Part shown: in pieces, positions 934-37,431 of the stretch
Layout: each line of letters begins with the position of its first letter
How positions within the stretch are numbered: position 1 is the first letter of the stretch
NCBI GenBank assembly: GCA_016198165.1
Contig: JACQJF010000039.1
Span: 1-46,041, forward strand
Direction: 5' to 3'
From: Candidatus Iainarchaeum sp.
GTDB taxonomy: Archaea > Iainarchaeota > Iainarchaeia > Iainarchaeales > GW2011-AR10
Length of the DNA: 46,041 bases
Translations under genes and position numbers: made by a program
The notes under the pieces: model-generated
Seen by the model: only the letters and a program-made list of their open reading frames with translations
What the model was told of the DNA's origin: nothing
Databases searched by the model: none

Positions 934-1302
934 GTGATTCTCGACACATATGCCTGGATAGAGTTGTTCAATGGGACAACTAAAGGCAAAAAAGTAAAAG
1001 AACTCATAGCTTTAAACCAGTGCTTTACAAGTGCGATTTCTATTGCAGAGTTAAGCGAATGGGTAGAAAAAGAGAAGCTTGACAGAAAACAGGTTTTTCA
1101 CACGGTGAAAAACCTTTCAACCCTCATTGAGATAAGCCAAGATGATTTGGAGCTGGCGGGAATTTTGAAAACAGAAAAAAGAAAAACTGTAAAAGACTTC
1201 GGCATGATTGATTCAATAATTTTGGCGACAGCAAAAAACTATAAACTAAAAATTGTGACAGGGGACAAACATTTCAAAGGCGAAAACACGATAATGCTGT
1301 AA
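934..1302 (+). CDS. vapC: PIN-domain toxin (VapC-like ribonuclease)
   Basis: 122 aa. It has the N-terminal acidic motif ILDTYAWIE and the C-terminal DSIILATAKNYKLKIVTGDKHF characteristic of PIN domains. The start is immediately adjacent to the antitoxin stop. Confidence 0.8.
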   Translation: MILDTYAWIELFNGTTKGKKVKELIALNQCFTSAISIAELSEWVEKEKLDRKQVFHTVKNLSTLIEISQDDLELAGILKTEKRKTVKDFGMIDSIILATAKNYKLKIVTGDKHFKGENTIML

Positions 1303-2265: not shown

Positions 2266-3066
2266 ATGACTACAGAGACTACAGGGAATAACAAGGGTTT
2301 TTCAGACAGCATGATGCTTTCAGTAAGCATTTTACTGTCAACACTGATCCTTTCCGGGACGCTTTTCTGGGTTGGTTCAGAACTATCAAACAGCCTAACC
2401 GGCTTAGAAATAGCAACGACTGGCAACAGCGGAAACACTGGGGGTACAGTGCAGACTGCGCCATCGCAGAATCCATCGCAGGCGCCGTCTCAAAACCCGG
2501 CAAGCCCCCCACAGGGTGGGACAGTTAAAATGGCTGATTTGCTTGCAGGCGCGTCAGGAACTGACGGTGACCCTAATGCACCGGTAATAATAGTAGAATT
2601 CTCCGACTTTGAATGCCCGTTTTGCGGCAGGTTCCACGATGATTCGGGGCTTCAGATAAGGGAAAACTATGTCAAAACCGGCAAGGTCCAGCTTGTCTAC
2701 AAGGACTTTCCACTGAGTTTCCATCCAAGCGCCCAGCCTTCAGCGGAAGCCGCGAGGTGCGCCGCGGAGCAGGGAAAATTCTGGGAAATGCACGACAAGC
2801 TCTTTGAAAACCAGCAGGCCCTCTCAGACTCTGACCTGAAAGGCTATGCTGTAGGAATAGGGCTGAATGCCGAGCAGTTCAACTCGTGTTTTGACTCGGG
2901 AAAATACACTTCGGCTGTCGAAGCGAATTTCTCCGAAGGCAGCAGGGTCGGTGTAAGCGGCACGCCTAGCTTTTTCATAGGGAAAAGGGACGGCACGGGC
3001 CAGATAATAGTCGGTGCACAGCCTTACTCCAATTTCAAGAGCATCATTGACGGGCTGCTCCAGTAA
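2266..3066 (+). CDS. membrane-anchored DsbA-like thiol:disulfide oxidoreductase
   Basis: 266 aa: an N-terminal TM helix, a Pro/Ser/Gln-rich linker, and a thioredoxin fold with active site FSDFECPFCGRFH (CPFC). The cis-Pro loop motif GTPSFFIG is near the C-terminus. Confidence 0.8.
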   Translation: MTTETTGNNKGFSDSMMLSVSILLSTLILSGTLFWVGSELSNSLTGLEIATTGNSGNTGGTVQTAPSQNPSQAPSQNPASPPQGGTVKMADLLAGASGTDGDPNAPVIIVEFSDFECPFCGRFHDDSGLQIRENYVKTGKVQLVYKDFPLSFHPSAQPSAEAARCAAEQGKFWEMHDKLFENQQALSDSDLKGYAVGIGLNAEQFNSCFDSGKYTSAVEANFSEGSRVGVSGTPSFFIGKRDGTGQIIVGAQPYSNFKSIIDGLLQ

Positions 3067-5133: not shown

Positions 5134-6681
5134 TTAGTTGAATGTAAGGTTAAAGCTTTTTGACTCTTCCACGCGCAGTGGCGCGATTTTCCGTGGGTTG
5201 TCAAAGGTTGCAGTCACGGAGCAAATCATCACGCTTCCGCTGTCGATGCTTGAGGGGGCCTGGATGATGTAGTTGACCTGCTTTGTTTCCCTGGGGTCGA
5301 CCTGGGCAATGAACGAATCGCCTATGATGACCCATGGGGCTGGTTCGTCGCTGCATTCCACAGAAAGCGACAGGTTCTGTATCACGAGGCTGCCGGTGTT
5401 TCGCAGTGTGAGCGTGCCGGCTTTTGTCTGGTAGGAGCCCGTGTCGTCGTCAAACTGTATTGTCTGGTTCGACAGGCCTGAAAGCTCTATGCTTGTCGAG
5501 CTTTTTGACGCAACCAGGTCAAGCTCTTTCGCGATTTCGAAAAAAGATGTTTTAAAGACAATCTGGCCGCCGATGTTTTCAGTGCCTGCACCCGGCGGGA
5601 AATTTATTTCCCCGACAGGCACCGTGACGCGTATCCCTATTTCCTGTGAAGCTCCTGCACGAATCTCCGGTATGGGGACTTCCCTTGAGAAAGTGAACCA
5701 GTTTCCGACGTCTTCTATGCTCGAGTATTGCACGTCGTTGATTGCAATCACTATGTCGAGGTTCTCGATGTCAAGGGCTGTCTGGTTTCGGATGGTGAAC
5801 CTTTTTTCGACAAGCGCGGAGCCCTCCTCGATTGTCCCGAAGTTGGTTGTCCCGCTGATTGTGACTTTTCTCTGGTCGAATGAAAGCAGGTCAAACGAAA
5901 CTGTTTTTTTCGCACCCGCACTGTTGAGGCCCTTTACCCTGATTGTGCCTAAAAGCCCGCTTTTTATCTCCGAGTTTGACAGGTCTGTTTTGACCTGGAG
6001 AGTCACGGGCACTGTTTTCTGCCCCGGCGGCACGCTGACAGGCTTTTCGTACGACGCGGTCATTATTTTTTCGCCAAGGCTTCCCTCAAACACGAGTTCG
6101 ATTTCCTCTGTGGACTGTGAATCGTTTTTCAAGAGGACGTTCACGGTTTCAATCTGGCCAAGCACGAGTTTCTCCGGGAACTGTTCCTCAAGCGACAACT
6201 CAACGTCCAGGTTTTTTTCCAGTATTGCCGTGATTTCCGCATTGTCGGCTACTTCAAACGCTGTCTTTGCCGGGGTCTTGTACCCGCCTGCAATTACTGA
6301 ATAATGATACGCGCCTTTCCTGAGGCTTGTTTTTCCCCCGCTTTCAACCGTTGCAATCGTTTTCCCGTCGGCTCCGAGTATTTTCACCGAAGCGCCACTC
6401 ACTTCGATGCCCTCGGTGTCATTGACAATGAAAGTGATTTCTTTCACGCTTCCAATGAAAAAATCGTAGAGCAGAAACAGTGCAAGCAGGCCAATGACAG
6501 CTATCGCGATTTTTTTCTTGTGCGCCTTTAACACGTCGAGGATTTTGAGGCCTGTTTCTTTGGCCTTGTCAAGGGGGCTGTCCTCATAGACGCCTTCCAT
6601 TTCATCCCCGCTTGAAGGGGAGTCATATTTGCCGGATTCTTCAGGCTTGTCGTACAAAAAAAACCACGCTTTTGATTGCAT
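5134..6681 (-). CDS. type-II-anchored surface protein with CarboxypepD_reg-like and repeated Ig/CARDB-like beta domains
   Basis: TM helix IAIAVIGLLALFLLYDFFIG is followed by ITFIVNDTEGIEVSGASVKILGADGKT...YHYSVIAGGYK and then several beta-rich modules. Start chosen at ATG 6681 (MQSKAWFF) because TTTTTATTATT lies about 20-28 nt upstream. The tracked ORF extends to 6771, so the start is uncertain. Confidence 0.6.
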   Translation of the reverse strand: MQSKAWFFLYDKPEESGKYDSPSSGDEMEGVYEDSPLDKAKETGLKILDVLKAHKKKIAIAVIGLLALFLLYDFFIGSVKEITFIVNDTEGIEVSGASVKILGADGKTIATVESGGKTSLRKGAYHYSVIAGGYKTPAKTAFEVADNAEITAILEKNLDVELSLEEQFPEKLVLGQIETVNVLLKNDSQSTEEIELVFEGSLGEKIMTASYEKPVSVPPGQKTVPVTLQVKTDLSNSEIKSGLLGTIRVKGLNSAGAKKTVSFDLLSFDQRKVTISGTTNFGTIEEGSALVEKRFTIRNQTALDIENLDIVIAINDVQYSSIEDVGNWFTFSREVPIPEIRAGASQEIGIRVTVPVGEINFPPGAGTENIGGQIVFKTSFFEIAKELDLVASKSSTSIELSGLSNQTIQFDDDTGSYQTKAGTLTLRNTGSLVIQNLSLSVECSDEPAPWVIIGDSFIAQVDPRETKQVNYIIQAPSSIDSGSVMICSVTATFDNPRKIAPLRVEESKSFNLTFN

Positions 6682-6810
6682 TAAGAAAAGATAAAAGAAT
6701 AATAAAAAGGTTTGTGCCCCCGCGCCCCCAAAAACAGGGGTTTTTTTGCCAGGGTAAAGGATATTATTCATTTATTTCATTAAATACTATTGATAGGGTG
6801 TATTTTTTCC

Positions 6811-8344: not shown

Positions 8345-9538
8345 ATGAAAAATTTGCTTTTGTTTTTCCTGGCCGCTCTTGCAGTGCTTTTGGCGGGCTG
8401 TCTTGGGGGGAATATCTCGGGTTCTGCGTTCAGTGCAGACCCGTCTTTTTCAGTTGAAAAAGTGAGGCAGCTCATAAACGACCCCAACGTGCTGGTGACG
8501 GAGAAAACCCTTGGCGGAGCGGCGATTTCCGCAAGCCTTAACGGCGCGGCCGCAGGTTGTGTCGGCTTGCTTCCCGAAAAACAGTATGTCCTGGTAGAGG
8601 CTTCTGCCCCGGCGACGAATTATTCGATTGTGCTTGACGGCGACAAAGTCATGTGCGTCATGCGCAAGGAAAGGCTGGCTGACGAGTGCAGCACTGCCGG
8701 GGACTGTGATGACGGCCTGTCTTCAACGACTGACTCGTGCAGCGGAACGCCAAAAATCTGCCTCAGCCAGAGGACAACTGAGTGCAAAAGCGGGGATTCT
8801 TTTTGCCCCGCTTCCTGCCTGAAAGGCACTGACTCGGATTGCGTGAGGGAATGTTTCGTGGATTCCACGTGCGATGACTCGGACCTGACGACAAAAGATT
8901 ACTGCGGCGGGGCACTGCAGCGCTGTATCCACGAGAAATTGTTTGTGGGGGGCAAGGAAGTGATTGCATGCTCTGCTGACGAGGAGTGCGTTGCGGAAAA
9001 CGTGTGCAGCACGGGGTCATGCGTTGAAGGCCTGTGTGTTTTTGGTGTCAAGCCAAATGGCACGGTGTGTGATTCCTCCAAGGACATGGAGTGCTTTGAC
9101 GGGGAGTGCGTGAAGGCAACTGAAAATCCCATTCGCCTGGTTAAAACAAAACTTGAATGGGTTAATGATGATAGCCCTGCCGGGAAAGTCTTAGTAACTG
9201 CCAATGCAAGCAAGTTAAGTATTTTTGAGGGCAAGTATGGAACGGATTTATCCTTCATGAAATCGGTTTTTGACGTTGAATGTTCAACCGGGGCATGCTT
9301 CAAGAGAACCAGCATTGATCACTCGGTTGAATTCACGGACCTCGTAGTGGCACAAGAATATTATTATACTATTTTTGCATTCGGCTTGTCAGAGTTAACC
9401 GTTTCCAAGACAGAAACTTTGTCGTTTTTTACCTGCCCCGGTCGATGTGATGACTCTGACGAGTGCACTGCCGACTCGTGCGATATTTCAACCGGAAAAT
9501 GTGACTACAAAAAGGATGAACAAAACCCTTCCTGTTGA
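8345..9538 (+). CDS. secreted Cys-rich lipoprotein-like protein
   Basis: Signal peptide with a lipobox-like LLAGC. Three CDDxxxxTxDxCxxxxxxC motifs are present (CDDGLSSTTDSCSGTPKIC, CDDSDLTTKDYCGGALQRC, CDDSDECTADSCDISTGKC), plus a CxxGxC-rich stretch and a beta-rich middle domain. Confidence 0.7.
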   Translation: MKNLLLFFLAALAVLLAGCLGGNISGSAFSADPSFSVEKVRQLINDPNVLVTEKTLGGAAISASLNGAAAGCVGLLPEKQYVLVEASAPATNYSIVLDGDKVMCVMRKERLADECSTAGDCDDGLSSTTDSCSGTPKICLSQRTTECKSGDSFCPASCLKGTDSDCVRECFVDSTCDDSDLTTKDYCGGALQRCIHEKLFVGGKEVIACSADEECVAENVCSTGSCVEGLCVFGVKPNGTVCDSSKDMECFDGECVKATENPIRLVKTKLEWVNDDSPAGKVLVTANASKLSIFEGKYGTDLSFMKSVFDVECSTGACFKRTSIDHSVEFTDLVVAQEYYYTIFAFGLSELTVSKTETLSFFTCPGRCDDSDECTADSCDISTGKCDYKKDEQNPSC

Positions 9539-9596: not shown

Positions 9597-9610
9597 AAAA
9601 TAATATAAAT
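9597..9610 (+). promoter_or_regulatory. TATA-like box upstream of the giant gene
   Basis: aaaataatataaat lies about 28-40 nt upstream of ATG 9638. Confidence 0.4.
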
Positions 9611-9637
9611 AACAAGAGATATTATTTTGGGCTATAC

Positions 9638-12600
9638 ATGAAGAGATTATTGCTGGTTTTTTCACTGTTTTTATTTTTCGGCCTGACTTCAGTGGCCCAG
9701 AACTCCTGCACTTACGAAAATTACTGGTATTGTTACTCGCAGGGCGAGTGCACGGGCGTTGGGCGCAACTGGTGCAGCACTTATTGTTCCTCAAGCGAGT
9801 GCCCCACTTGTTCTTCCCAAACCCCTTGGAATTGTTATGACCAGCCTTCGTGCACTGGTGCGGGCGGTTACTGGTGCAACAATTATTGCCAGTCTCAAGC
9901 ATGCCAGACTTGTTCATCACAATACCCTTCTTACTGCACTACTGAAGCAACCTGTACTTCTGCAGGCCTTTACTGGTGCAACGGATACTGCCAAAGTTCC
10001 TCGTGTGGCGGTGGAGGAGGTGGTTACTGTGGTGACGGCACGTGTAACAACAGTGAAACTTCCGGTTCGTGCCCTTCAGACTGCGGGGGAAACACATGCA
10101 GGGTAGGCTATTCTGGTTATTGTTACACTCAAGCAGATTGCACAGGCATAGGTGCCAATTGGTGCGGCAGTTGGTGTACAACCGGCAGCTGTCCCACTTG
10201 TTCTTCCCAAATGCCGGGTAATTGCAGCACGCAGTCTACTTGCACGGGGGCAGGCGCCAACTGGTGCCAGGGCGGCTCGGATTATCACTATTGCACTTCG
10301 AGTGTGTGCCCTGTCTGCTCAAGGGAATCTACGGGAAATTGTTATACCGAGGCTCAATGCACCACTGCGGGAGCCAATTGGTGCAGTGCGGGTAATAATG
10401 GCTGGTGCACTACGTCTTCGTGCCCCGTTTGTTCTTCTTCAACCCTGGGAAATTGTTATGACTCTGCCGCGTGCACCAATGCCGGTGCTTACTGGTGCAC
10501 TTCAAGCGGTGGTGGCGGTGGCTGGTGCAATAGTTCCCAGTGCCCGACCTGCAATTCCTCGAACCTGAGTTACTGCAGCACGCAGACTGACTGCACGACC
10601 GCGGGCGGCGCGTGGTGCAACGGGTATTGCTCGTACTCGTGCGGTGGCGGGGGGTACAACTACACATGCAGTTCGAACAACCCAAGCTATTGTTACTCTG
10701 AATCAGAATGCAGCACTGTTGGCGCACAGTGGTGCAAGTCAAGCGGTGGTGGCAGTGGCTGGTGCTCTTTTTCATGCCCTACTTGTTCTTCTTCGTCTGT
10801 CTGGAACTGTTATGATTCTTCTTCATGCAGTGGTGCCGGCGGCAACTGGTGCGGTTCCGGCAACAGTGCCTGGTGCAGCAGTTCTGCCTGTCCCGTTTGT
10901 TCTTCAGGCAACTATTGGAACTGTTATGACCAGGGTTCATGCACTACTGCCGGTGCACAGTGGTGCACGTCTTCTGCTGGCGGCAGTGGCTGGTGTTCAA
11001 ACTCGTGCCCTGTGTGCTCCAAGGATTCGGCGTGGAACTGTTATACCCAGGGCGAGTGCAGCACTGCGGGTGCACAGTGGTGCACAAGCGGTTATGGCTC
11101 CGGTTGGTGCTCGACTTCCTGCCCGGTCTGCTCCTCTTCTTCAACCTACAATTGTTACACTGAATCGGAATGCACTACAGCAGGCGCAGAGTGGTGCGGC
11201 ACTTACTGTTCCTCGTCATGCCCGGTTTGCAACAAGGAGCAGCCCTGGAGCTGTTACAACAAGGACGCCTGCACGGGAGCGGGGGCGCAGTGGTGCGGCA
11301 CTTATTGTTCATCCAGCTGCCCGACTTGTGCAAACTCCCAGTTGTGGAATTGCTATGACGAGTCCTCGTGCACTGGTGCAAGCGGGAGCTGGTGCGAGTC
11401 ACAAAGCATGTCCAGTTATTCTTATTCTTCGGGTTGGTGTTCATCTTCCTGCCCGACCTGCTCTTCTTCAAGCGCGTGGAATTGTTATGACGAGTCCTCG
11501 TGCACTGGTGCGAGCGGCAACTGGTGCAAGTCAGGCGGCGGCTATGGCTGGTGCTCGACTTCCTCGTGCCCTGTCTGCAGCAAGGACCAGACGTGGAGCT
11601 GCTACACCAAGTCAGACTGTACGACTGCGGGGGCCAATTGGTGCGGTTCGGAGGCAAGCGGGTGGTGCTCGACTTCCCAGTGCCCGACATGTTCTTCAAG
11701 CAATTACTGGAACTGTTATGATGACTCCTCCTGTACAAGTGCGGGTGCGAAGTGGTGCCAGACAAGCAGCGGCTCTGGGGTTTCTGGCGGCAGTTCGGGT
11801 TATTGTTCTTCAAACTGCCCCACGTGTTCTTCTTCCAGCACGTGGAATTGTTTTTCCGAGTCAACCTGCAAGGCGGCTTCCGCCAATTGGTGCACGGGCA
11901 AAGGCGGTTACGGGTGGTGCTCCACCTATAACTGCCCGTCATGCGGCAAGTCAAGCCCCGGCAACTGCTCCACGCAGGGCCAGTGCACGGGCGCGGGCCT
12001 TGAATGGTGCGATTCAGGCAGCGGTTCGGGCTGGTGCAGCACGTCCTGCCCCAAGTGCTCTTTGGAGAAACCGGGCAATTGCCTTAACCAGTCAAGCTGC
12101 ACAAGCGCGGGTGCAGAGTGGTGCGGCTCGTATTGTGTCGCGGACTCGTGCCCGTCATGTGACCTTTCAAGCCCCTGGAACTGCGTGACCGAGAGCACGT
12201 GCGCCGGCGCGGGGGGAAAATGGTGCTCTGACGCAAGCGGTGAAGGCTCTTTTTGCGGAACTTCCTGCAAAGTGTGCGAGGTTTCAAACCTCGCCAACTG
12301 CCTCTCAGAAGACTCGTGCGTGAATGTCGGGGGCAATTGGTGCGGTTCCTGGTGCAGTGACACTGCATGCCCATTGTGCGACCCGGATAAGCCCGAGAGC
12401 TGCCAGACAAAAGTCGACTGCGAAGCGGTTGGCGCCAAGTGGTGTGCGTCAAAAGACGGGGCTTTTTACTGCAGTGAAACCTGCCCAGTGTGCAATGAAA
12501 GCGAGTTGTACAATTGCTCTGACCAGGCTACCTGCAACAGCGTTGGCGGAGATTGGTGCGGTTCATATTGTTCAACAGAATGCCAGGTGTGCTCTGACGA

Positions 12601-15301
12601 GTCCCCGTGGAGCTGCCTCTCGCAGGGAGATTGTGATGCCTCCGGCGGCGAGTGGTGCGGAAGCCAGGCAGAGGGCTGGTGTTCCGAGTCATGCACGGAA
12701 TGCACCGCCGATGACTTTGCAAGCTGTGCCACCCAGTCAGAGTGCCTTGAAAGCACTGGCCAGTGGTGCGTTGACCCGGCAACAGGGACAAGTTATTGCG
12801 CAGCTTCATGCGGTGCATGTTCAATTGAAACCCCGTGGAACTGCCTTGGCTCCGCCGACTGCGGGGCGACAGGCGGGACCTGGTGCGGTTCTTATTGCTC
12901 GGCAGGTTCCTGCAGTGAATGCAAACAAGACCACCCGTGGAACTGCGCAAGCTTTAGTTCATGCGAGGAAATAGGCGCGAATTGGTGCCTGCCACAGGGA
13001 AGCGGGTATGGCTACTGCTCCGGCGAAGAATGCTCCAAGTGTTCCACTCAAACGCCATGGCTTTGCCTTGACGAGACAAGCTGTGTTGAAAACAGCGCCA
13101 ATTGGTGCGGAACCTACTGTTCAACCGGTTCCTGCCCTGTGTGTGACCAGCAAACACTTTCCAATTGCTTTACCAAGGAATCCTGCCAGGAAACGGGCGG
13201 CGATTGGTGCGTTTCAGCCACCGCAAACAACGGCTGGTGCTCGAATTCCTGCCCTGTGTGCGACAAGGATTCCCCGTGGAACTGTTACTCTGAACAGGAG
13301 TGCCTCGGGGCAAACGCGCAATGGTGCGCAAGCAGCGGCAGTTCAAGCGCCCAAAACACTTCTTATTACGCCGGTTCCTCCTATTGTTCCAATTCTTGCC
13401 CGACCTGTTCAACCGAAACCGCTTGGAATTGCGGCGACAAGGACTCGTGCCTCTCAAACGGCGGCAACTGGTGCGGGAATTACTGCTCCACTTCTTCGTG
13501 CCCGATTTGTTCTCCCGACTCGCAGTGGTACTGTTACACGGAGCAGGCCTGCCAAACGGCAGGCGGCAATTGGTGCAACTCGCACTGCTCCTCAAGCACA
13601 TGCCCGGTTTGCACAGGCGAAGACCCGTGGAGTTGTTACAGCCAGGAATCCTGCACAGAAGCAGGAGCCCAGTGGTGCGGAACCTATTGTTCTACAAACT
13701 GCCCTTCGTGCAGCAATGATTCCTCGTGGAATTGCTCCACGAAAGAAACCTGCCTTGGCGTCGGCGCCAATTGGTGCGCCACTTATTGTTCCACCCAGGC
13801 GTGCCCCCAGTGCACAGGCGAAAACCCCTGGGCATGCACGGACGAAGAAACCTGCGGTGGTGTGAGTGGCAATTGGTGCCAACCCACTTGGGAGGGAGGG
13901 AAAGGATGGTGCACGGATTACTCGTGCCCCGCTCCGCAATTGTACGCGGTGTGCGGTGACGCGGCATGTGAAAGCGGCCTTGGCGAAAACAGCCTTAACT
14001 GCTCCAGGGATTGTGAAGCACAGCCGCCAGTGACTGCTTCCCTTGACTGCCGTGACGTGCTTGACGAGGCAACAGGCTTCACCAGGACAGAGTGCACAGG
14101 CGGGCCAGTTGAAGAGCACGTGTGCTTTGAAGAACCCCAAGGAGTGCTTGATACTTGTTTGTCTGTAGGTGGAATACCGGAAAACCTGGTTGACGAGTTC
14201 GGCTGCCCACTCACAAACTGCGTCCTGCCTGGTGCGACAGAGGAGATTTTCCTTGAAAAAGAATGCCTGCCACAAGAACAGGTAGACTTGTTTGTTTCCG
14301 AGTGTGAAAAAAACGGGTTAAAACCGGTGGTTGAGGCGGGCATTGACGGGTGCTTTGAACCGCGCTGTGAAGGGCATGAAGAGACGCTCACAGAGTCATG
14401 CAGGCAATACACGCCGGAAGAAATAAGCGAGGCGGAAAACAATTGCGCAGTGCAGTTAGGTGCCCTGGATTACAGGTTTAACGAGAACGGCTGCAAGGAA
14501 CCTATGTGTGTCACGCTTAACGAGAACCTGTGCTACCAGGTTCCAGAGGGGGCAAAGAAGCTCTGTGCGGCAGACGGCGGGGAAATGGTTGAAGTAAGGG
14601 ACGAGGCAGGGTGTGTGACTTACTCATACTGCCTGGGCAGTGCAGGCAGTGACTTTGAATTCGAGCCTGTGAAACAACTGCCCTCGCGCGAAGAAATAGA
14701 CGCAGTGATTGACGAGCTTGCAGGGCTCCAGGCGGCAATAGAAGTAGTCGCGGAAAAACTCGGCACCCTGAAGACATTTTTCGAATCCGCGTCAGACACC
14801 ACTAACATGCACAAGGTTGAAGTCGCAAAATCAATGCTTGAAGGCTCTGCGGAATCCCTCCGGGAAATGAGGGAGTTTTTGTTCCAGAATTCCTCATCCG
14901 TCACGGTTGAAGAACTCTCGGGATTCAGGGCGGAACTTGGGAACATAAGCAAGTCGCTTGAAAAAGCCCTCGGAGTCCTACTCGGGGCATTTGGCACTGG
15001 CACTGCGGAGGAAAACAATTGCGGCTCGAACATGGATTGCCTCCAGGATAACTTGTCGACCTGCACGCCATCAACCGCGACCCTGTTTGACACTGGAGTA
15101 ACTTTCAACGTTTCAATCGAAGGCATTGAAGGGCAAAGATGCTCCATGAACGTTGACGCGGTTGTGGATAACGAGCCATTGTCAATGGCCTGCAGGTATG
15201 CCGGGTATGCCAACGGCGCCCTGGGCGGAGAGGACACGGAAGGCTTTTTGGATTCATGTGAAGGCACTCTTTTGGAGTACATGCTCTTGAAGGTAGAGTG
15301 A
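9638..15301 (+). CDS. giant secreted cysteine-rich tandem-repeat protein (1887 aa)
   Basis: Sec signal MKRLLLVFSLFLFFGLTSVAQ, then about 36-38 modules of 33-49 aa with the pattern C-P-x-C-x7-C-x5-C-x7-(W)C-x3..17-(W/Y)C. These are followed by four 4-Cys modules, a helical Cys-free stretch and a terminal Cys-containing domain. It is the only frame with a coherent repeat architecture. Confidence 0.85.
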   Translation: MKRLLLVFSLFLFFGLTSVAQNSCTYENYWYCYSQGECTGVGRNWCSTYCSSSECPTCSSQTPWNCYDQPSCTGAGGYWCNNYCQSQACQTCSSQYPSYCTTEATCTSAGLYWCNGYCQSSSCGGGGGGYCGDGTCNNSETSGSCPSDCGGNTCRVGYSGYCYTQADCTGIGANWCGSWCTTGSCPTCSSQMPGNCSTQSTCTGAGANWCQGGSDYHYCTSSVCPVCSRESTGNCYTEAQCTTAGANWCSAGNNGWCTTSSCPVCSSSTLGNCYDSAACTNAGAYWCTSSGGGGGWCNSSQCPTCNSSNLSYCSTQTDCTTAGGAWCNGYCSYSCGGGGYNYTCSSNNPSYCYSESECSTVGAQWCKSSGGGSGWCSFSCPTCSSSSVWNCYDSSSCSGAGGNWCGSGNSAWCSSSACPVCSSGNYWNCYDQGSCTTAGAQWCTSSAGGSGWCSNSCPVCSKDSAWNCYTQGECSTAGAQWCTSGYGSGWCSTSCPVCSSSSTYNCYTESECTTAGAEWCGTYCSSSCPVCNKEQPWSCYNKDACTGAGAQWCGTYCSSSCPTCANSQLWNCYDESSCTGASGSWCESQSMSSYSYSSGWCSSSCPTCSSSSAWNCYDESSCTGASGNWCKSGGGYGWCSTSSCPVCSKDQTWSCYTKSDCTTAGANWCGSEASGWCSTSQCPTCSSSNYWNCYDDSSCTSAGAKWCQTSSGSGVSGGSSGYCSSNCPTCSSSSTWNCFSESTCKAASANWCTGKGGYGWCSTYNCPSCGKSSPGNCSTQGQCTGAGLEWCDSGSGSGWCSTSCPKCSLEKPGNCLNQSSCTSAGAEWCGSYCVADSCPSCDLSSPWNCVTESTCAGAGGKWCSDASGEGSFCGTSCKVCEVSNLANCLSEDSCVNVGGNWCGSWCSDTACPLCDPDKPESCQTKVDCEAVGAKWCASKDGAFYCSETCPVCNESELYNCSDQATCNSVGGDWCGSYCSTECQVCSDESPWSCLSQGDCDASGGEWCGSQAEGWCSESCTECTADDFASCATQSECLESTGQWCVDPATGTSYCAASCGACSIETPWNCLGSADCGATGGTWCGSYCSAGSCSECKQDHPWNCASFSSCEEIGANWCLPQGSGYGYCSGEECSKCSTQTPWLCLDETSCVENSANWCGTYCSTGSCPVCDQQTLSNCFTKESCQETGGDWCVSATANNGWCSNSCPVCDKDSPWNCYSEQECLGANAQWCASSGSSSAQNTSYYAGSSYCSNSCPTCSTETAWNCGDKDSCLSNGGNWCGNYCSTSSCPICSPDSQWYCYTEQACQTAGGNWCNSHCSSSTCPVCTGEDPWSCYSQESCTEAGAQWCGTYCSTNCPSCSNDSSWNCSTKETCLGVGANWCATYCSTQACPQCTGENPWACTDEETCGGVSGNWCQPTWEGGKGWCTDYSCPAPQLYAVCGDAACESGLGENSLNCSRDCEAQPPVTASLDCRDVLDEATGFTRTECTGGPVEEHVCFEEPQGVLDTCLSVGGIPENLVDEFGCPLTNCVLPGATEEIFLEKECLPQEQVDLFVSECEKNGLKPVVEAGIDGCFEPRCEGHEETLTESCRQYTPEEISEAENNCAVQLGALDYRFNENGCKEPMCVTLNENLCYQVPEGAKKLCAADGGEMVEVRDEAGCVTYSYCLGSAGSDFEFEPVKQLPSREEIDAVIDELAGLQAAIEVVAEKLGTLKTFFESASDTTNMHKVEVAKSMLEGSAESLREMREFLFQNSSSVTVEELSGFRAELGNISKSLEKALGVLLGAFGTGTAEENNCGSNMDCLQDNLSTCTPSTATLFDTGVTFNVSIEGIEGQRCSMNVDAVVDNEPLSMACRYAGYANGALGGEDTEGFLDSCEGTLLEYMLLKVE
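9707..13925 (+). repeat. in-frame tandem array of ~100-150-nt coding repeats
   Basis: The codon series TGCCC(N)(N)(N)NTG(C/T)... recurs, encoding CPxCS...WNCY...C..AGa.WC...GWCS.S. Neighbouring units can be near-identical over about 45 nt (for example 11351-11400 vs 11484-11533). Confidence 0.8.
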
Positions 15302-15306
15302 AAAAA

Positions 15307-15708
15307 ATGCGCCAGGTTGAATTGTTTGGCAGGAAAGTCGACGCGATTGTCATAATAGCAGTAGTCACGATAATCGCGGGCCTCGCTTTTTATGCTTACA
15401 CCGGCTTGTCCCCAAAGCAGGGAAAACCGTCAGGGGAGCTTGAGCAGCAGATAGCGGAGAGGATAAAAGCCGGGATTTCCGTGGACTCAAAGGAGGACGC
15501 GCGCGACTCGATTGCCTCAATCAGCCAGGAGCTGGAAAACCTCCGCGGAGCGGTCTCAAAAGCAAACAATGGCCTTGAAGGAAAACCATCGACCGGCCCC
15601 ACGGGCCTCGTGTTCTTTGCGCAAGTCGCGATAACCCTGGCAATCCTTGCCTCGCTTGCCGCACTCCTATTCCACTTCGCAGTCACGCGCGGAAAAAACC
15701 TCAAATAA
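15307..15708 (+). CDS. two-TM membrane protein (N- and C-terminal anchors)
   Basis: ATG 15307 lies 6 nt after the giant gene's stop; the tracked ORF starts at GTG 15298, overlapping that stop. It has an N-terminal helix AIVIIAVVTIIAGLAFYAY, a hydrophilic helical middle, and a C-terminal helix LVFFAQVAITLAILASLAALLFHFAV plus a basic tail TRGKNLK. Confidence 0.6.
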   Translation: MRQVELFGRKVDAIVIIAVVTIIAGLAFYAYTGLSPKQGKPSGELEQQIAERIKAGISVDSKEDARDSIASISQELENLRGAVSKANNGLEGKPSTGPTGLVFFAQVAITLAILASLAALLFHFAVTRGKNLK

Positions 15709-15863: not shown

Positions 15864-16250
15864 TTATGCAATAGCTTTTATTTCCGCCAGTTTCTTAGGC
15901 TTTAGATTTACGAGCGGCAGTATGAGAATCTCTTTTGTAACTTTTGGTAGAATGTTTTTTCCTTTCTTTTCCAGTTCAATTATGCGGAATTTTTCCAATA
16001 GTTTCAAATCCCTTAAAACAGCGCTAAGCTGTCTGCCAGTCAGCTCACTTAGTTTTGTGGCATTTTTTGGTTTTTTGGCCTGGATCAGCCTCACCAGTTC
16101 CAGTCTTTTCTTTGTGAAAACTCGTGTTATCTCATCATCAGACAGGCTAAGCAAAATGCCCTCATCCGGGTACTTGCCCGGGTTTTTGAATACCCTGTCA
16201 AGGTAGTGTTTTACTGAATTCCATCTTTCATCAGTCATTTTATACGCCAT
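15864..16250 (-). CDS. HTH DNA-binding protein (putative antitoxin/regulator)
   Basis: 128 aa. A winged-helix segment is RLELVRLIQAKKPKNATKLSELTGRQLSAVLRDLKLLEKFRIIELEKKGKN. It starts 6 nt after the stop of the upstream 109-aa gene. Confidence 0.6.
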   Translation of the reverse strand: MAYKMTDERWNSVKHYLDRVFKNPGKYPDEGILLSLSDDEITRVFTKKRLELVRLIQAKKPKNATKLSELTGRQLSAVLRDLKLLEKFRIIELEKKGKNILPKVTKEILILPLVNLKPKKLAEIKAIA

Positions 16251-16755: not shown

Positions 16756-18603
16756 ATGAAGAATTTGTTTTTCCTCTTTTTACTGTCATTTGTTTTTTTT
16801 GGTTGCATAACCGATTCCGCTTTTACAGGACAGGGCTTGGCTCCAACCAGGAACCTTGCTCCGTCTGCCCAGCCTGATAGCACTCTGGAAAATTATTTGG
16901 TTCCGGCTTTAGAGCCAGTGAACCCGCCACAAGAGCCTGAAACTGAACAAACTGTTTCTGAGGAAGAAAACGTTTTAACTGGTGAATTTGAGGAGCCATT
17001 CAGAATTTCAATAGATGATTTGATAGCAGAGACAGGCTATGTACCGGATCAAACCGGTGGAGAAAGTGAACCCATAAGAAAGCCTAGTACGCCACCACGT
17101 CACTTGTGGAATGCATATGCATTGGAAGGGGTTTCTAATAGTACTTTTACAATGCCGAAAGTCGCTGACTTGGATGGTGATGGTACTAAAGAAATTGTTT
17201 CTGCTTTGATGAGTGCTGATAATACGGGGTATTGTCATGAGGTAATTAAGCAGGGTATTTATACGTGGGATGAACAAGGGCAACTTTTGGAAGGTTTTCC
17301 TGTTTATCTTGAAACACTGAATTACCCCGATAATTGTGGCGGTCTTTCAATCGTAGGAATTGCAGATGTTATCGGCAGCAACAAACTTGAAATTGTGGTT
17401 GCTACTGGGAATGGGTCCATGCCGCGAGGTGGGGTTTATGTCATATCGAACACTGGAAGAGTTATTAGTAAAATCGCCACTAACGTACATTTTTCAGGTG
17501 GTGATATCTGGCACCCTATTTTAGTTAACTTGGATGAGGATGAGAAAAAAGAAATAGTTGCAATAAGACCTCAAAGACCTCTACAAATTAATGGTAAAAT
17601 ATATGCCTGGAATGGAGATGGAACCACTCTTGATGGCTGGCCAGTTTCATTTTTAGGAGAAGATTATGTTTATGATGGGGCAGCAGATGATGTAGATGGT
17701 GATGGGCAAATAGAGCTTTTTTTTCCATCATCGTTTCGTATTGACGATGCTCATTTTGGTGCTCGTCTAAGATCTTACCAGCCAAATGGTACGTTGAACT
17801 GGGTTGTAGATCTTCCCTTTGGGGGGGTTTCTCCGGGGAAAATCATCTTAGCAGATGTAGATCAAGATGGCTCAAAAGAACTGATTATAACGGTGTTCAG
17901 ACAACGTGAGCCAAACGAACATTCTGAAAAGTTAATTGCAATCATTAACTCTGCTGATGGCAGCCTAAAAAATTTTTGGCCGAATCTTAATGGTTATAGC
18001 TATTACGGTAACTTAGCCGTTGGGAATATGGATTCAGACAAAGAGTTAGAAATATTGTATACTGATGTTTACAACATATACGTAGCCGATGCAAATGATG
18101 GCACTCAATTGCCGGGATTTCCAAGGCATTTATGGGATGATGGTTCTTCAGATCCTCCAAATTGGGACATACCTGCAAAAGATTGTGTTGGAAGACCACC
18201 TTATTGCTATGCAACTTCTATAGGAGTTGCTGACCTCATTGGTGATACTAAACAAGAAATATTTACTTTTGCATATAGTTATCTGCCCAGTAATAGACGG
18301 GAGCCAGAGTCTTATTTTATGAGTTTTTTTGCTTTTGACAGCAGTGGTCATACTCTTCCAGGCTTTCCATTTCACTTGAAAAACTATGTTTACGTTCCCG
18401 ATAATGTAGGGTATAGTTGGGGCGAAATAGCTCCTCCAACTTTCACAAATTTAGGTAATGATGGCCTCTCAGACATTGTAACCTCTAAAGGGTTTGGCAG
18501 AATAGAGGCATTCACCATTAACAACACTTATAACGAATCTTTAGCAATTGTTCCGGAATTTGGTGTTGACAGGCAAAATACAAGAACCGTAAAACAGAAT
18601 TAA
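16756..18603 (+). CDS. secreted FG-GAP/VCBS-repeat beta-propeller protein
   Basis: Signal peptide plus FFGC. Seven Ca-binding-like repeats are present: DLDGDGTKEIV, NLDEDEKKEIV, DVDGDGQIELF, DVDQDGSKELI, NMDSDKELEI, DLIGDTKQEIF, NLGNDGLSDIV. Each is preceded by GFP/GWP motifs. Confidence 0.8.
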   Translation: MKNLFFLFLLSFVFFGCITDSAFTGQGLAPTRNLAPSAQPDSTLENYLVPALEPVNPPQEPETEQTVSEEENVLTGEFEEPFRISIDDLIAETGYVPDQTGGESEPIRKPSTPPRHLWNAYALEGVSNSTFTMPKVADLDGDGTKEIVSALMSADNTGYCHEVIKQGIYTWDEQGQLLEGFPVYLETLNYPDNCGGLSIVGIADVIGSNKLEIVVATGNGSMPRGGVYVISNTGRVISKIATNVHFSGGDIWHPILVNLDEDEKKEIVAIRPQRPLQINGKIYAWNGDGTTLDGWPVSFLGEDYVYDGAADDVDGDGQIELFFPSSFRIDDAHFGARLRSYQPNGTLNWVVDLPFGGVSPGKIILADVDQDGSKELIITVFRQREPNEHSEKLIAIINSADGSLKNFWPNLNGYSYYGNLAVGNMDSDKELEILYTDVYNIYVADANDGTQLPGFPRHLWDDGSSDPPNWDIPAKDCVGRPPYCYATSIGVADLIGDTKQEIFTFAYSYLPSNRREPESYFMSFFAFDSSGHTLPGFPFHLKNYVYVPDNVGYSWGEIAPPTFTNLGNDGLSDIVTSKGFGRIEAFTINNTYNESLAIVPEFGVDRQNTRTVKQN

Positions 18604-18827
18604 GCAACTCTAAGTCAACATTTTTTTCCCCATTAGATTTTTATGCTTCTTTCCAGCTTTCTATTTTCCTGCTTTCTGCGTGCATAAGCGCGGGCTGCCA
18701 AAAAAACTTTTTCAGTCCAAAAGCTTTTATATGTATTTTTACATATGGTTGTATGTATTTTTACTAGTGGTGTTTTTTTGTGGAATTTGGCGAAACGGAT
18801 TCAAAGGTTCCAAAATCAGGAATAGCT

Positions 18828-19280
18828 ATGGAAAGAGCCCTAAATGGCTGCATCAAAAGAAAGAGAATCCAGGGCTTCTCCAAAGAGGATGCCAAGACTT
18901 TTTTGGCCAAAGCACATTATCATTTGCAGACAGCAGAGTCTTTTGAATCTGACAGTTTCTTGGACTGGGCAGTAATTGCTTATTATTCCGGCATGTACAT
19001 GGCGGCTAAAGCTTTTACCGCGCATTTTTCTGGCACTGCTGCAAAAGACCATGGCTGCACTATCGCCTTAATGCTCCAGGTTTTGAAGGGAAAAAAGTTT
19101 GCCAAAAAGCTTGGCAGCGCGAGAAAAAAATTTGAGCAGGAGATAGAACTGCTTGGAAAAGTAAGGCAGTACCGGAACAGCGCCTTATACACTGTCACTG
19201 AGGTTAAGGAAAACGACGTGAGAAAAATTGCAAAGAATGCTTTTGAATTCGTGGAAGAGATTGATAAACTGTTGAAGTGA
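18828..19280 (+). CDS. HEPN-domain protein
   Basis: The helical protein has AKAHYHLQTAESF... and the conserved late motif RQYRNSALY. It overlaps the downstream MNT gene (GTGA at 19277-19280). Start uncertain: ATG 18828 or GTG 18780. Confidence 0.7.
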   Translation: MERALNGCIKRKRIQGFSKEDAKTFLAKAHYHLQTAESFESDSFLDWAVIAYYSGMYMAAKAFTAHFSGTAAKDHGCTIALMLQVLKGKKFAKKLGSARKKFEQEIELLGKVRQYRNSALYTVTEVKENDVRKIAKNAFEFVEEIDKLLK

Positions 19281-19900
19281 GCGAAAAAATGCTGTTGCAA
19301 AAGTCAAGACAAAGGGTTCTTTCTGCAATTCTCCGGAACCCAGGCATACATGTAAATGGGCTGATAAGGCTGGTGGGTTCGCTTAGAGGTATCAAGGGAA
19401 TTTTGGATGAACTTGAGAAAGCCGGGTTGATTTATTCAAAGCACGTTGGAAACATAAGGCAGATTTTTCCATTGCTTGGCAGCTCTTTCAGCGTTTCAAC
19501 TTTTGAATTGGTTGAAGAACAGGAAAAACAGGGTGTCATGTCAAAGTTTTCAATAGCTAAAAGTCTTGTCGGGCGTATTGATTTATTCAAAAAGATTTTT
19601 GGCCAAGAACTTGTTTCCATTGCGCTTTTTGGTTCAATAGCGAGGGGGCATTTAACTGAAACATCCGACATAGATATATTGTTCATTGTCAAAAAGGAAA
19701 AAACAGTGCAAAAAAACAAATTGGTCAAATTGTTTCAGACAATCAGCCTCAACACTGGCCGGGAAATAAACCCCGTAATAATTGAAGAAGGCGAGTTCAA
19801 AAAACAGTTGACCAAAGACAGTTCTTTTGCAAGGCAGGTGCAAAAAGAAAGGATAATACTGTGCAATCCAAAGGAATTCCTGTCACTGCAAAACATTTGA
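19277..19900 (+). CDS. wHTH + minimal nucleotidyltransferase (MNT) protein
   Basis: An N-terminal wHTH (RVLSAILRNPGIHVNGLIRLVGS...LEKAGLI) is followed by the NTase signature LFGSIARGHLTETSDIDILFIV. An alternative ATG start is at 19289. Confidence 0.8.
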   Translation: MSEKMLLQKSRQRVLSAILRNPGIHVNGLIRLVGSLRGIKGILDELEKAGLIYSKHVGNIRQIFPLLGSSFSVSTFELVEEQEKQGVMSKFSIAKSLVGRIDLFKKIFGQELVSIALFGSIARGHLTETSDIDILFIVKKEKTVQKNKLVKLFQTISLNTGREINPVIIEEGEFKKQLTKDSSFARQVQKERIILCNPKEFLSLQNI

Positions 19901-21001: not shown

Positions 21002-22774
21002 ATGGAAAGGACTCATTATTGCGGGAATGTCCGGGCAGTGGACGCGGGAAAGGGCGTGGTTATTTTTGGCTGGGTTAGCAACAAGCGCGACCACGGGGGC
21101 CTGACCTTCATTGACCTGCGCGACAGGGCTGGTTTTGTCCAGGTCGTGTTTAACGGCGAGAAAAACCACTCAATCCACGGGCAGGCCAAGGGGCTTTCGG
21201 CCGAAGACGTGATTTGCGTCCACGGCTCTGTCCTGAAAAGGCCCAAAGGCACGGAAAACAAGGGCCTGCCCACTGGGGAGGTCGAGGTGGAGGCAAAAAC
21301 ACTTGAACTATTGAACAAGTCGCTTCCTGTGCCCCTTGAGGTCACCGAGCACGTCAATGCAAGCGAGGAAACAAGGCTCAAGTACCGTTTTTTGGACCTG
21401 CGAAGGCATTCAATGCAGGAAAAACTCCTGCTCCGGCACAAGCTAACAAAGGTCGTACGGGACTATTTTGACTCGCACGGCTTTTTGGAGATAGAGACCC
21501 CGATTCTTGCCAAGTCAACTCCTGAAGGGGCGCGCGATTACCTTGTCCCAAGCAGGGTTAACCCGGGCAGGTTTTTTGCCCTCCCCCAGAGCCCCCAGTT
21601 ATTCAAGCAACTCTTAATGGTTTCAGGCTGCGACCGGTACTTCCAGATAGCGCGGTGTTTCCGCGACGAGGACCTGCGCGCCGACCGCCAGCCGGAATTC
21701 ACCCAGATTGACGTTGAAATGAGTTTTATTTCCGAGGAAGACATTTTTGAAATCGTCGAGGGCCTCGTGAAAGAAATTTTTTCAAAGACAATCAACGTTC
21801 AGCTCAAACAGCCGTTTCCGCGGATGTCTTATGACGAGGCAATGGAGCGCTTTGGAGTTGACGCCCCAGACACGCGCTATGGCCTTGAGCTTGTGGATGT
21901 TTCAAAAGAAGTTGAAAATTCCGATTTCAATGTTTTCAAGGACTGCCTCAAGTCCGGTGGCATGGTCAAGTCAATCAACCTCAAGTCGTGCGGCGGTTTT
22001 TCGAAAAAAGAAATCGAGGAACTGACCGAGTTTGTGAAAATCTACAAGGCAAAGGGCCTTGCATGGCTCGTGCATTCAAAGCAGGGCTTTGACGGCCCCG
22101 TTAAAAAGTTTTTTCCCAAAAAAACCCTTGACTTGCTTGCAAAAAAACTCGGCGCAGGCGAAAACGATTTATTGGTTTTTGTCGCAGACAAGCCTTCAAT
22201 TGTAAATCCTGCGTTGGGGTATCTGCGCAAGCACGTGGCAAAAAAAACCGGGCTTGTGAAAGAAAACGTTTTCAACTTTGTCTGGGTGTACGAGTTCCCA
22301 CTTTTGTTTTTCAATGAAGAAGAAAACCGCCTTGAGTCAATGCACCATCCTTTCACTTCTCCAAAACCAGAACACGTTCCACTCCTGGAAAAGGAGCCAT
22401 TGAAAGTTCGGGCGCGCGCATATGACCTCGTGCTCAACGGCATTGAATTGGGGGGCGGGAGCATCAGGATACACTCAACGGAACTTCAGCAGAAAATGTT
22501 TGACGTGCTTGGAATTTCCAGGCCGGAAGCCGAGGCGCGCTTTGGTTTTTTCCTCGAAGCACTAAAATACGGTACTCCGCCGCATGGTGGAATCGCGTTT
22601 GGCCTGGATCGGATTGCAATGCTCCTTGCAGGCGCTGACTCTATCCGCGAGGTCATTGCTTTTCCAAAGAACAAGTCAGCGGTTTCGCTCATGGATGGCG
22701 CGCCAAGCGAGGTTTCAGAAAAACAGCTTCGCGAACTTCGTATAAAGCTTGATTTTTCACAGAAAAAGGGGTGA
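21002..22774 (+). CDS. aspS: aspartyl-tRNA synthetase, bacterial-type (with insertion domain)
   Basis: 590 aa: an OB-fold N-terminus, class II motifs (FFALPQSPQLFKQLLM, FRDEDLRADRQPEFTQID, GGGSIRIH, PPHGGIAFGLDR) and an approximately 130-aa insertion between motifs 2 and 3. Confidence 0.9.
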   Translation: MERTHYCGNVRAVDAGKGVVIFGWVSNKRDHGGLTFIDLRDRAGFVQVVFNGEKNHSIHGQAKGLSAEDVICVHGSVLKRPKGTENKGLPTGEVEVEAKTLELLNKSLPVPLEVTEHVNASEETRLKYRFLDLRRHSMQEKLLLRHKLTKVVRDYFDSHGFLEIETPILAKSTPEGARDYLVPSRVNPGRFFALPQSPQLFKQLLMVSGCDRYFQIARCFRDEDLRADRQPEFTQIDVEMSFISEEDIFEIVEGLVKEIFSKTINVQLKQPFPRMSYDEAMERFGVDAPDTRYGLELVDVSKEVENSDFNVFKDCLKSGGMVKSINLKSCGGFSKKEIEELTEFVKIYKAKGLAWLVHSKQGFDGPVKKFFPKKTLDLLAKKLGAGENDLLVFVADKPSIVNPALGYLRKHVAKKTGLVKENVFNFVWVYEFPLLFFNEEENRLESMHHPFTSPKPEHVPLLEKEPLKVRARAYDLVLNGIELGGGSIRIHSTELQQKMFDVLGISRPEAEARFGFFLEALKYGTPPHGGIAFGLDRIAMLLAGADSIREVIAFPKNKSAVSLMDGAPSEVSEKQLRELRIKLDFSQKKG

Positions 22775-22783
22775 AATTTTTTT

Positions 22784-23077
22784 TTGGAAGAAAAAGTGTC
22801 GCGGGAATTGCTCCAAAAAGTCGCAAAAAATGCACGCCTCAGGCTCTCGGATGCAGAACTGCAAAAGCTTCTTCCGCAGTTTTCCGAAATGCTTGAAACG
22901 TTCAGGAAAATCTCCGAGCTTGACGTGAAAGGCACTGAGCCTGCACTCCACCCCGTTGAAATGAAAAACATTTTCCGCGAAGACAAAGTCGGAGAATGCC
23001 TGCCACAGGACAAGGCTTTTGCAAACACTGTGCACAAAAAGAATGGTTACTTCAAAGGCCCGCGGGTGGTGCAGTGA
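22784..23077 (+). CDS. gatC: Asp/Glu-tRNA amidotransferase subunit C
   Basis: VAKNARLRLSDAELQKLLPQFSEMLETFRKISELDV...PVEMKNIFREDKV is a typical GatC. TTG start at 22784, with an alternative GTG at 22796. Confidence 0.8.
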   Translation: MEEKVSRELLQKVAKNARLRLSDAELQKLLPQFSEMLETFRKISELDVKGTEPALHPVEMKNIFREDKVGECLPQDKAFANTVHKKNGYFKGPRVVQ

Positions 23078-29238: not shown

Positions 29239-29294
29239 AAAAGTTATAACCACAAAACAATTTATAAAAGGTGGTGATAACTTGTTCAGATTGG

Positions 29295-31134: not shown

Positions 31135-31199
31135 AAGAATAATTAACACCAAAAACTATAAAAATAGTTATTTTGTACCAAGTTGGTGTTAACTGAGGA

Positions 31200-37383: not shown

Positions 37384-37431
37384 CTTTCTTTTTACACCAA
37401 GTTTTACACTTGGGTTTTTGGGATCCCTTGC

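Follow-up and report, generated by a model that had tools for sequence, protein, structure and literature searches.

What does an archaeon make with a secreted protein of 1887 residues that consists largely of tandem six-cysteine repeats, and is the very long reading frame that encodes it a single real gene? We addressed this question for the open reading frame (ORF) at positions 9638..15301 (+) of a 46,041-nucleotide stretch from Candidatus Iainarchaeum sp. (contig JACQJF010000039.1 of assembly GCA_016198165.1), which we refer to as the window. An initial annotation, made from the letters alone, had described about three dozen such repeats in this ORF. Our analysis shows that it is an intact gene for a secreted DPANN protein, in which 37 copies of a six-cysteine mini-domain stand on a conserved base. 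The reading that we prefer, to which we give a probability of roughly 0.5, is that the product is a disulfide-stapled fibre at the cell surface, whose C-terminal helical bundle is held by a partner protein and whose role would be adhesive.

Thirty-seven six-cysteine modules follow a signal peptide

The protein begins with a probable Sec-type signal peptide at residues 1-20 (MKRLLLVFSLFLFFGLTSVA, 9638..9697 (+)), which shows a basic n-region, a 13-residue hydrophobic core and a V-x-A site in the translation, with cleavage probably occurring before QNS. This N-terminal signal sequence is kept in the ortholog at locus L041 that is described below. Downstream of it the strict core pattern C-x7-C-x5-C-x7-C occurs 37 times between residues 24 and 1414, whereas 1000 shuffles of the same composition give 0.9 occurrences on average and never more than 5. 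A CxxC motif precedes 34 of these cores and is absent before three, giving 37 modules in place of the 36 units plus two degenerate ones that had been counted by hand.

The modules had been parsed as starting with the CxxC, and it is this phase that has to be revised. Specifically, the first module, right behind the signal peptide, lacks a leading cysteine, the last module terminates in '...GWCTDYSCP', and modules 3 and 8, which precede Gly-rich spacers, also finish with a lone cysteine. This indicates that the natural phase starts one cysteine later, as Ca-x7-Cb-x5-Cc-x7-Cd-x3-19-Ce-x3-4-Cf. All 37 modules are complete in this phase, which covers 222 of the 226 cysteines of residues 1-1431, the remaining four being located in the first of two CGD motifs. 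In relatives the junction between Cf and the following Ca spans 1-7 residues (for example CPSYTC and CPTYEC). Judged by these sequence patterns, 'CPxC' reads as the inter-module junction Cf-P-x-Ca and not as a metal or redox motif.

From the core pattern and the phase, modules 1-3 fall at residues 23-123 (9704..10006 (+)) and modules 4-37 at residues 153-1431 (10094..13930 (+)). The first CGDGxC...E...CPxDC motif (residues 131-149, 10028..10084 (+)) follows a Gly6 linker between modules 3 and 4, and a second motif of the CGD type (residues 1439-1459, 13952..14014 (+)) marks the border between the array and the C-terminal region. Both motifs had been noted correctly, but they do not bracket the array as was thought. 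Junctions within modules 4-37 are of the two-residue Cf-P-x-Ca form, except for an 8-residue spacer past module 8. The loop from Cd to Ce is exactly 3 residues long in 16 modules ('WCG[ST]YC') and 7-19 residues long in the other 21 ('...G.GWC'), so that of the proposed range of 3-17 only the lower limit holds. A Trp stands directly before Cd in all 37 modules and an aromatic residue before Ce in 36 of 37. These are two of the three positions at which Trp or Tyr had been said to adjoin a cysteine, the third being a W-N-C in which the Trp is one residue off.

Other features of the initial annotation were borne out, including the order of a Sec signal peptide and then a tandem array reaching to about residue 1400, the module length of 33-49 residues, and the unusual composition. 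Cysteine makes up 15.8% of residues 1-1460, where Met, Ile, Lys, Arg and His are each below 2%, and 13.5% of the whole protein, which has 254 cysteines in total; only 3 His occur in 1409 residues. The described Ser-rich centre corresponds to modules 9-20 and the distal acidic drift to modules 23-37, which carry net charges of -2 to -7.

Structure prediction of consecutive modules gave a helix plus hairpin fold that has no counterpart in the PDB. An AlphaFold model of modules 10-12, built with a 45-row alignment, has a mean predicted local distance difference test score (pLDDT) of 92.4 and a predicted template modelling score (pTM) of 0.64, and in it each module forms a short helix and then a beta-hairpin. 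Foldseek comparison of this model with the PDB returned nothing significant (best E = 7.6), and comparison with the viral BFVD library likewise returned no significant match. Searches of PDB sequences with a single module gave no match, and those with a profile gave none at E <= 10. Scans of Pfam and NCBIfam with the whole protein, single and triple modules, the CGD motif and three C-terminal sub-regions left the repeats uncovered, and the whole protein matched no Pfam family at E <= 0.1. The earlier statement that the module is no named repeat thus agrees with Pfam, NCBIfam, PDB sequences and Foldseek, none of which has a match to it.

The array is conserved module by module

The 1887-residue ORF contains no internal stop codon and is recovered in the assemblies of other sequencing runs. 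Contig L004, a Logan assembly from another run, matches window positions 9584-15763 at 100% over 6,180 bp, and contig L003, also a Logan assembly from another run, has 99.96% identity across positions 10589-15717. A third run, from a different organism, contains at locus L041 a complete ortholog of 1888 residues with 79% identity and 37 modules. Alignment of this protein with that of the window shows that 254 of 254 Cys columns are kept and that indels are no longer than 5 residues, and the genes upstream match too. We found no sign of an assembly artefact, a frameshift or a stop, and all three loci support the ORF.

A further relative, L005, is cut by the end of its contig, and its modules align with those of the window one-to-one by position. 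The ratio of nonsynonymous to synonymous differences (pN/pS) in the array relative to L005 is 0.19, with synonymous sites being saturated (pS 0.84). In the same comparison Cys is kept at 149 of 149 positions and Trp at 52 of 52, with only two small indels over 923 codons. Purifying selection acts on the array, which is old, stable and constrained. Within the gene the module cores have a mean DNA identity of 53% and a maximum of 81%, the most similar pairs being found among modules 2 and 10-19, so the suggested closer DNA similarity of the central units holds only to a weak degree. Tandem Repeats Finder reported no DNA tandem repeat in the gene. We also considered a fast-varying contingency locus, which was rejected given that the orthologs are the same in module number and module positions.

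The base and its membrane partner

The array leads into a C-terminal region of about 430 residues that, across the family, has 30 invariant alignment columns, most of which are Cys. Its first part (residues 1470-1666, 14045..14635 (+)) comprises a beta-hairpin and four helix-hairpin units, each with four invariant cysteines, as deduced from the alignment and an AlphaFold model with pLDDT mostly 60-85. The second part (residues 1684-1782, 14687..14983 (+)) is predicted to form three long coiled-coil-like helices (pLDDT 80-93), corresponding to region residues 229-262, 266-295 and 302-327 in the model. The third part (residues 1798-1886, 15029..15295 (+)) is, by alignment and AlphaFold, a small alpha/beta domain with invariant Cys. 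The model of the region as a whole is of moderate confidence (pLDDT 71.6) and gave no significant fold match in the PDB by Foldseek. A profile of the region against PDB sequences gave only generic coiled-coil hits, all confined to the three helices and led by a designed single-chain antiparallel four-helix bundle. A local jackhmmer search of the family with the C-terminal region of the window protein recovered P0001-P0015 at E values of 1e-110 to 1e-141, and a search of GTDB species representatives with the single window sequence found no close relative, so that the window organism itself has none among them.

Immediately downstream lies a gene for a small membrane protein at 15298..15708 (+). 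Reading of the junction indicates a start either at GTG 15298, which gives a 4-nucleotide overlap with the stop of the large gene, or, more likely, at ATG 15307. The product has an N-terminal transmembrane helix, a conserved amphipathic helix (VDSKEDARDSIASISQELENLRGAVSKANNGLEG) and, in this lineage, a second transmembrane helix at the C-terminus. An ORF of this type (64-136 residues) starts between -8 and +23 nucleotides from the stop of the large gene in 15 of 15 distinct loci. This count takes in only loci with a visible 3' end and draws on 16 entries, L021 being the same contig as L001; the loci are the window, L001, L002, L005-L007, L010, L012, L017, L023, L026, L027, L029, L030 and L038, plus L035 of a sister subfamily. 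The partner ORFs share an N-terminal transmembrane helix, sometimes with a lipobox-like 'GC', then a variable linker and an ungapped block of about 34 residues that is amphipathic and ends in L-x-D-[IV]-[DN]-x-x-L-G, and their overall identity is low. A hidden Markov model built without the window and L005 was run against the 610 stop-to-stop ORFs of the window, and only 15262..15705 was significant (E = 6.7e-5, next best 3.2). Large gene and partner are probably translationally coupled. Note that basic residues border the cytoplasmic ends of the partner transmembrane helices, as read from the sequences, which argues that the conserved helix faces outside. The partner probably anchors the large protein at the membrane.

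The sister subfamily (L023, L035, P0039 and P0061) bears on which part of the base the partner may recognise. Its members have a different Cys-rich middle and lack the terminal alpha/beta domain, and the partner gene is kept. Their C-terminus matches the three-helix part of the profile (domain E = 4.8e-4), which is the only shared part. This indicates that the helical bundle is the common element of the partner-associated proteins.

The full architecture is confined to DPANN archaea

We searched 5.8 billion proteins and obtained 17 hits, none of which is named. Fifteen have the full design, with a signal peptide, variable N-terminal parts, 2-22 six-cysteine modules and the conserved C-terminal region. 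CGD motifs number 0-10 per family member. The variation in module number that had been proposed as worth seeking among orthologs does exist in the family, which ranges from 2 to 37 modules per member, and the window protein and its L041 ortholog, with 37 each, have the longest arrays seen. All three characters of the family, namely tandem modules, the C-terminal region and a downstream transmembrane partner, are present at the window locus. The latter two, which the initial annotation had not noticed, are what sets the family apart.

We also scanned genomes with a degenerate DNA pattern of the module core, which picks up 14 of the 37 modules in the window and gives no match in 100 shuffles. 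Among 185,579 species-representative genomes it found 34 loci, and those with at least two pattern hits are from DPANN only (Iainarchaeum, Woesearchaeota, Nanoarchaeota, Aenigmatarchaeota, Parvarchaeota and GW2011_AR10). The complete genome of GW2011_AR10 has a gene with 24 modules and the C-terminal region. Nine bacterial loci have a single pattern hit each without a matching ORF, indicating that these are chance matches. Thus, the full architecture is confined to DPANN archaea. The assignment of the window to a small-genome DPANN archaeon is likewise supported by the protein search, by the genome scan and by an aspartyl-tRNA synthetase (AspRS) of at least 90% identity from another metagenome-assembled genome, which is labelled 'archaeon'. 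In one Iainarchaeum metagenome-assembled genome (JACPKT01) the contig of L028 stops inside an array of at least 27 modules, and that of L007 opens inside an 8-module array that is followed by the C-terminal region; these are probably one gene of at least 35 modules that was divided by assembly.

Some family members terminate in a short hydrophobic-plus-basic tail (e.g. ...GLVSFFNLFGRK), which the window protein does not have and which may serve in sorting or anchoring. In others a Kazal-like insert, 'PVCGxDGxTYxNxC', separates the array from the C-terminal region. The variants with such a tail or insert are P0006, P0009, P0010, P0014 and P0015, and P0007, P0023, P0027, P0037 and P0057.

The module itself has more distant kin. 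A three-module profile run against 1.84 billion cluster representatives recovered only 135 proteins at E <= 1e-3, of which 56 reach E <= 1e-10. Relatives outside the DPANN family are secreted proteins with a four-cysteine repeat, C-x7-C-x5-C-x3-GG-x-W-[YF]-x3-C, with E values down to 1e-23. These repeats adjoin F5/8 type C, NedA-like, BACON, PPC or fn3 domains, or nothing recognisable, and no Pfam or NCBIfam model covers them. They are true distant relatives of the module and are also arranged in tandem, but they lack Cd and Cf (which would leave two disulfides), occur in runs of 3-10, and come without the DPANN C-terminal region or the partner.

A proposed surface fibre and its competitors

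Our preferred model is that the mature product is a secreted surface protein of about 190 kDa after signal peptide cleavage. Its 37 mini-domains of 33-49 residues, each a short helix plus a beta-hairpin with three disulfides and joined by two-residue linkers, would build a stiff, strongly acidic and Ser/Thr/Gly-rich distal rod. The base would be composed of the four 4-Cys helix-hairpin units, the three-helix bundle and the small alpha/beta domain. The co-encoded membrane protein would tether this base, with its extracellular amphipathic helix packing onto the three-helix bundle, and the assembly would serve as a spacer or contact fibre, that is, an adhesin or stalk, on the cell surface. Taking tandem EGF domains as a guide, we estimate that a fibre of 37 modules may be tens of nanometres long.

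Several points weigh against this model. The disulfide pairs beyond Cd-Cf, as well as the rigidity and length of the rod, are properties that we infer, and docking of the partner on the bundle is suggested by adjacency and co-occurrence. The window protein has no distinct tip domain for adhesion. Some relatives have hydrophobic C-terminal tails of their own and may need no partner. Finally, only about two dozen species-level genomes contain the strict DNA pattern, so the family is not universal in DPANN.

The best functional analogy is the tandem arrays of epidermal growth factor (EGF) and calcium-binding EGF domains in fibrillin and Notch, which likewise string dozens of six-cysteine, three-disulfide modules of about 40 residues together by short linkers into a rod. 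EGF domains differ in having a C-x-C, where the module has the spacing x7/x5/x7/x3-19/x3-4 in 37 of 37 cases, and in forming two hairpins, where a helix and a hairpin are predicted here; the module also has no calcium-binding consensus. EGF-family Pfam profiles (EGF, EGF_CA, hEGF and EGF_2/3) did not match the whole protein at E <= 0.1 or single and triple modules at E <= 10. The variant-specific surface proteins (VSPs) of Giardia and other CxxC-rich surface proteins are likewise Cys-rich, extracellular and full of CxxC motifs. They differ in that the CxxC here is a variable junction, and in that positional orthology and purifying selection take the place of antigenic variation; VSP and furin-like Pfam profiles gave no match to the whole protein. 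Giant surface proteins of other DPANN archaea, such as the SPEARE proteins of nanohaloarchaea, are, going by their published description, likewise very large, secreted by small-genome archaea and proposed to act in cell contact. As far as that description goes they differ, since the protein studied here lacks protease, lectin and nuclease domains and is not similar to them in sequence. The overall type, an extracellular rod of tandem disulfide-rich mini-domains, is already familiar.

Among the alternatives, one that deserves weight, although we regard it as unlikely, is a two-component surface layer or coat in which the large protein forms the outer lattice and the small one the stalk, as with SlaA and SlaB of the Sulfolobales. 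There too a large secreted protein is encoded beside a small membrane-anchored helical protein, its presumed tether, but there is no sequence relationship, and SlaB has about 400 residues and a C-terminal anchor, where the partners here have 64-136 residues and an N-terminal anchor. The idea gains from the preservation across DPANN phyla of a gene pair for a large secreted and a small membrane-anchored helical protein, from the acidity of the large protein, and from the proposal of a DPANN S-layer protein with a stalk-type anchor (10.1101/2021.04.28.441871). Classical S-layer proteins have almost no sulfur residues, are 40-60% hydrophobic and are heavily glycosylated (10.1101/2021.04.28.441871). 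The composition found here is unlike this, with 13.5% Cys and an array that is poor in hydrophobic residues, and N-glycosylation sequons are depleted (13 observed compared with 21.7 +/- 3.9 expected). Moreover, S-layer models of Pfam and NCBIfam (e.g. TIGR01564 and TIGR01567) do not match, a module number that ranges from 2 to 37 across the family would be odd for a lattice unit, and the family is patchy among DPANN genomes.

A reading that we consider more doubtful is that the modules form a multivalent carbohydrate-binding surface, similar to lectins or carbohydrate-binding modules (CBMs), for glycans of a partner cell, of extracellular polymers or of organic matter associated with minerals. 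Such glycan-binding modules would overlap with the adhesin reading and are compatible with the fibre model. Each module of 33-49 residues has three or four conserved aromatics, the four-cysteine relatives adjoin F5/8 type C, NedA-like galactose-binding, BACON, PPC and fn3 domains, and in size and composition the module is reminiscent of CBM1 and hevein, which are small disulfide-rich carbohydrate-binding modules. However, no carbohydrate-binding family matches in sequence or fold; hevein/CBM18 and CBM1-type modules in particular gave no Pfam hit, no PDB-profile hit at E <= 10 and no Foldseek hit. The invariant Trp directly before a cysteine may be buried on a disulfide, and the repeats in the other proteins could equally be spacers.

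The fibre model can also be stretched into a bolder form, which we offer as speculation with little more than an outside chance of being right. In that form the six-cysteine module would be a new fold, and the giant protein and its partner would be an unrecognised attachment apparatus common to several DPANN phyla, namely a fibre with 111 disulfides whose bundle is completed to four helices by the partner helix and which makes contact with host cells or surfaces. The host contact in an episymbiotic archaeon that the initial annotation had proposed gains no support from our results.

Probable disulfides rather than metal

The initial annotation had left open whether the cysteines are locked in disulfides or bind metal. 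This was addressed by tabulating the joint loss of cysteines in modules collected from the family and the wider profile hits by the core pattern with Trp before Cd. When Cd is present there are two Cys before the next module in 439 modules and one Cys in none, and when Cd is absent there is one following Cys in 217 modules and two in 17. The cysteine that is retained in Cd-less modules has the Ce-type spacing and a preceding aromatic. By this pattern of co-loss Cd-Cf behaves as an accessory disulfide on a four-cysteine core. Four further proteins (P0016, P0017, P0119 and P0130) have four-cysteine 'C-x7-C-x8-10-WC-x6-8-CP' modules that resemble Cc to Cf with Ca and Cb missing. Their C-terminus is a very long coiled coil, and they form a distinct family that appears to be distantly related to the module. 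Because this group lacks both Ca and Cb, pairings of Ca with Cb and of Cc with Ce are tentatively suggested.

A candidate catalyst for such bonds is encoded 6.5 kb upstream of the giant gene, at 2266..3066 (+). The product is a DsbA-like, membrane-anchored thioredoxin with a CPFC site (Pfam Thioredoxin_4 6.8e-35 and DSBA 1.2e-20; NCBIfam Rcas_1661 1e-43). It is plausible that this protein catalyses extracytoplasmic disulfides in Cys-rich secreted proteins, and the giant protein may be one of them.

The co-loss of Cd and Cf, the variable junction, the scarcity of His, secretion and the nearby DsbA-like protein together favour disulfides over metal. The opposing reading, in which CxxC cysteines would let the protein soak up metal or buffer electrons or thiols outside the cell, can point to 34 CxxC motifs and 254 cysteines. 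We regard it as very improbable, given that the CxxC is a module junction that varies from 1 to 7 residues in relatives, that no CxxC opens the first module and a lone Cf closes the last, that Cd and Cf vanish together as expected for a disulfide pair, and that the array offers no His or Met ligands. In addition, the protein is secreted with an oxidoreductase encoded close by, and the sole weak Pfam line is a Rad50 zinc hook at E = 1.7. The initial proposal of a secreted disulfide-type repeat protein is thus supported at the level of sequence, and its metal-binding alternative is disfavoured.

Wrong-frame gene calls

An exact look-up of the 1887-residue product found no called gene on record. 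The full product is absent from the records because the gene caller chose wrong frames. On two Logan contigs the automatic caller picked alternative-frame ORFs at 9759..10106, 10152..10568, 10644..12188, 12324..12974 and 13008..13865 (all +), so that products of 115, 138, 514, 216 and 285 residues, plus a 423-residue C-terminal fragment, stand in place of the 1887-residue gene. That these ORFs of 115-514 residues are the true genes, or that the array is an assembly artefact, is scarcely credible in view of a frame that is open across 5.6 kb, the identical or near-identical assemblies from two other runs, an ortholog at 79% identity with a like length and module count, a pN/pS of 0.19 in the long frame, 15 homologs with matching architecture, and alternative-frame translations that are Ala/Arg/Pro/Gly-rich shadow products. 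The shadow-ORF products are spurious database entries.

The genomic neighbourhood

Directly upstream of the giant gene, at 8345..9538 (+), is a gene for a 397-residue Cys-rich protein with a lipobox-like LLAGC and Dicty_CTDC-like CxDSDxCTxDxC motifs. It is syntenic at L041 and not at distant loci. An FG-GAP protein (16756..18603) and an NPCBM_assoc-like protein (5134..6771 (-)) are also encoded near the giant gene, and together with the 8345..9538 protein they make the region look like a surface-protein island. Between the partner and FG-GAP genes, window positions 15718-16680 (about 960 bp), which hold a 128-residue ORF at 15864..16250 (-), are missing from contig L003, which joins 15717 to about 16681 and is otherwise 99.96-99.98% identical. 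This difference is a strain-level insertion or deletion.

Farther away, the window contains genes of the toxin-antitoxin or defence type at 724..1302, 18780..19900, 28291..29253 (-) and 30130..31152 (-). These comprise a HEPN and nucleotidyltransferase pair and two Fic/DOC genes, identified with Pfam, and a 69-residue ORF followed by a 122-residue ORF, which by eye we take to be an AbrB/SpoVT-type antitoxin and a PIN-domain toxin, respectively. The relative L040 has HVO_A0114 and DUF7718 genes in the slot of the HEPN and nucleotidyltransferase pair. A block at 21002..26697 encodes a bacterial-type AspRS with a GAD insertion domain beside GatC, GatA, GatB and an inositol monophosphatase, although the genome is labelled archaeal, and is syntenic in L005 and in L040. 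The L040 contig, which bears the near-identical AspRS, stops short of the giant gene. Finally, a 90-nucleotide tRNA at 37295..37384 (+) is called tRNA-Tyr with the odd anticodon 'ata' by ARAGORN and is confirmed as a tRNA by Rfam; an intron probably confuses the anticodon call.

Implications for DPANN cell surfaces

We found no description of the module or of the gene pair in the literature searched, and neither the module family nor the C-terminal region nor the partner gene is described in the libraries or the literature that we searched. The miscalling of shadow ORFs means that the family is under-represented in protein databases and that spurious proteins have entered them instead. The four-cysteine repeat that the module profile links to the family could be curated as a new domain family. 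DPANN account for a large part of the diversity of archaea, and the majority are believed to live in attachment to other cells, yet to our knowledge almost nothing is known of their surface molecules. The family, with its well-predicted new mini-domain, base and membrane partner, provides a concrete, conserved and testable candidate for such a molecule in several DPANN phyla.

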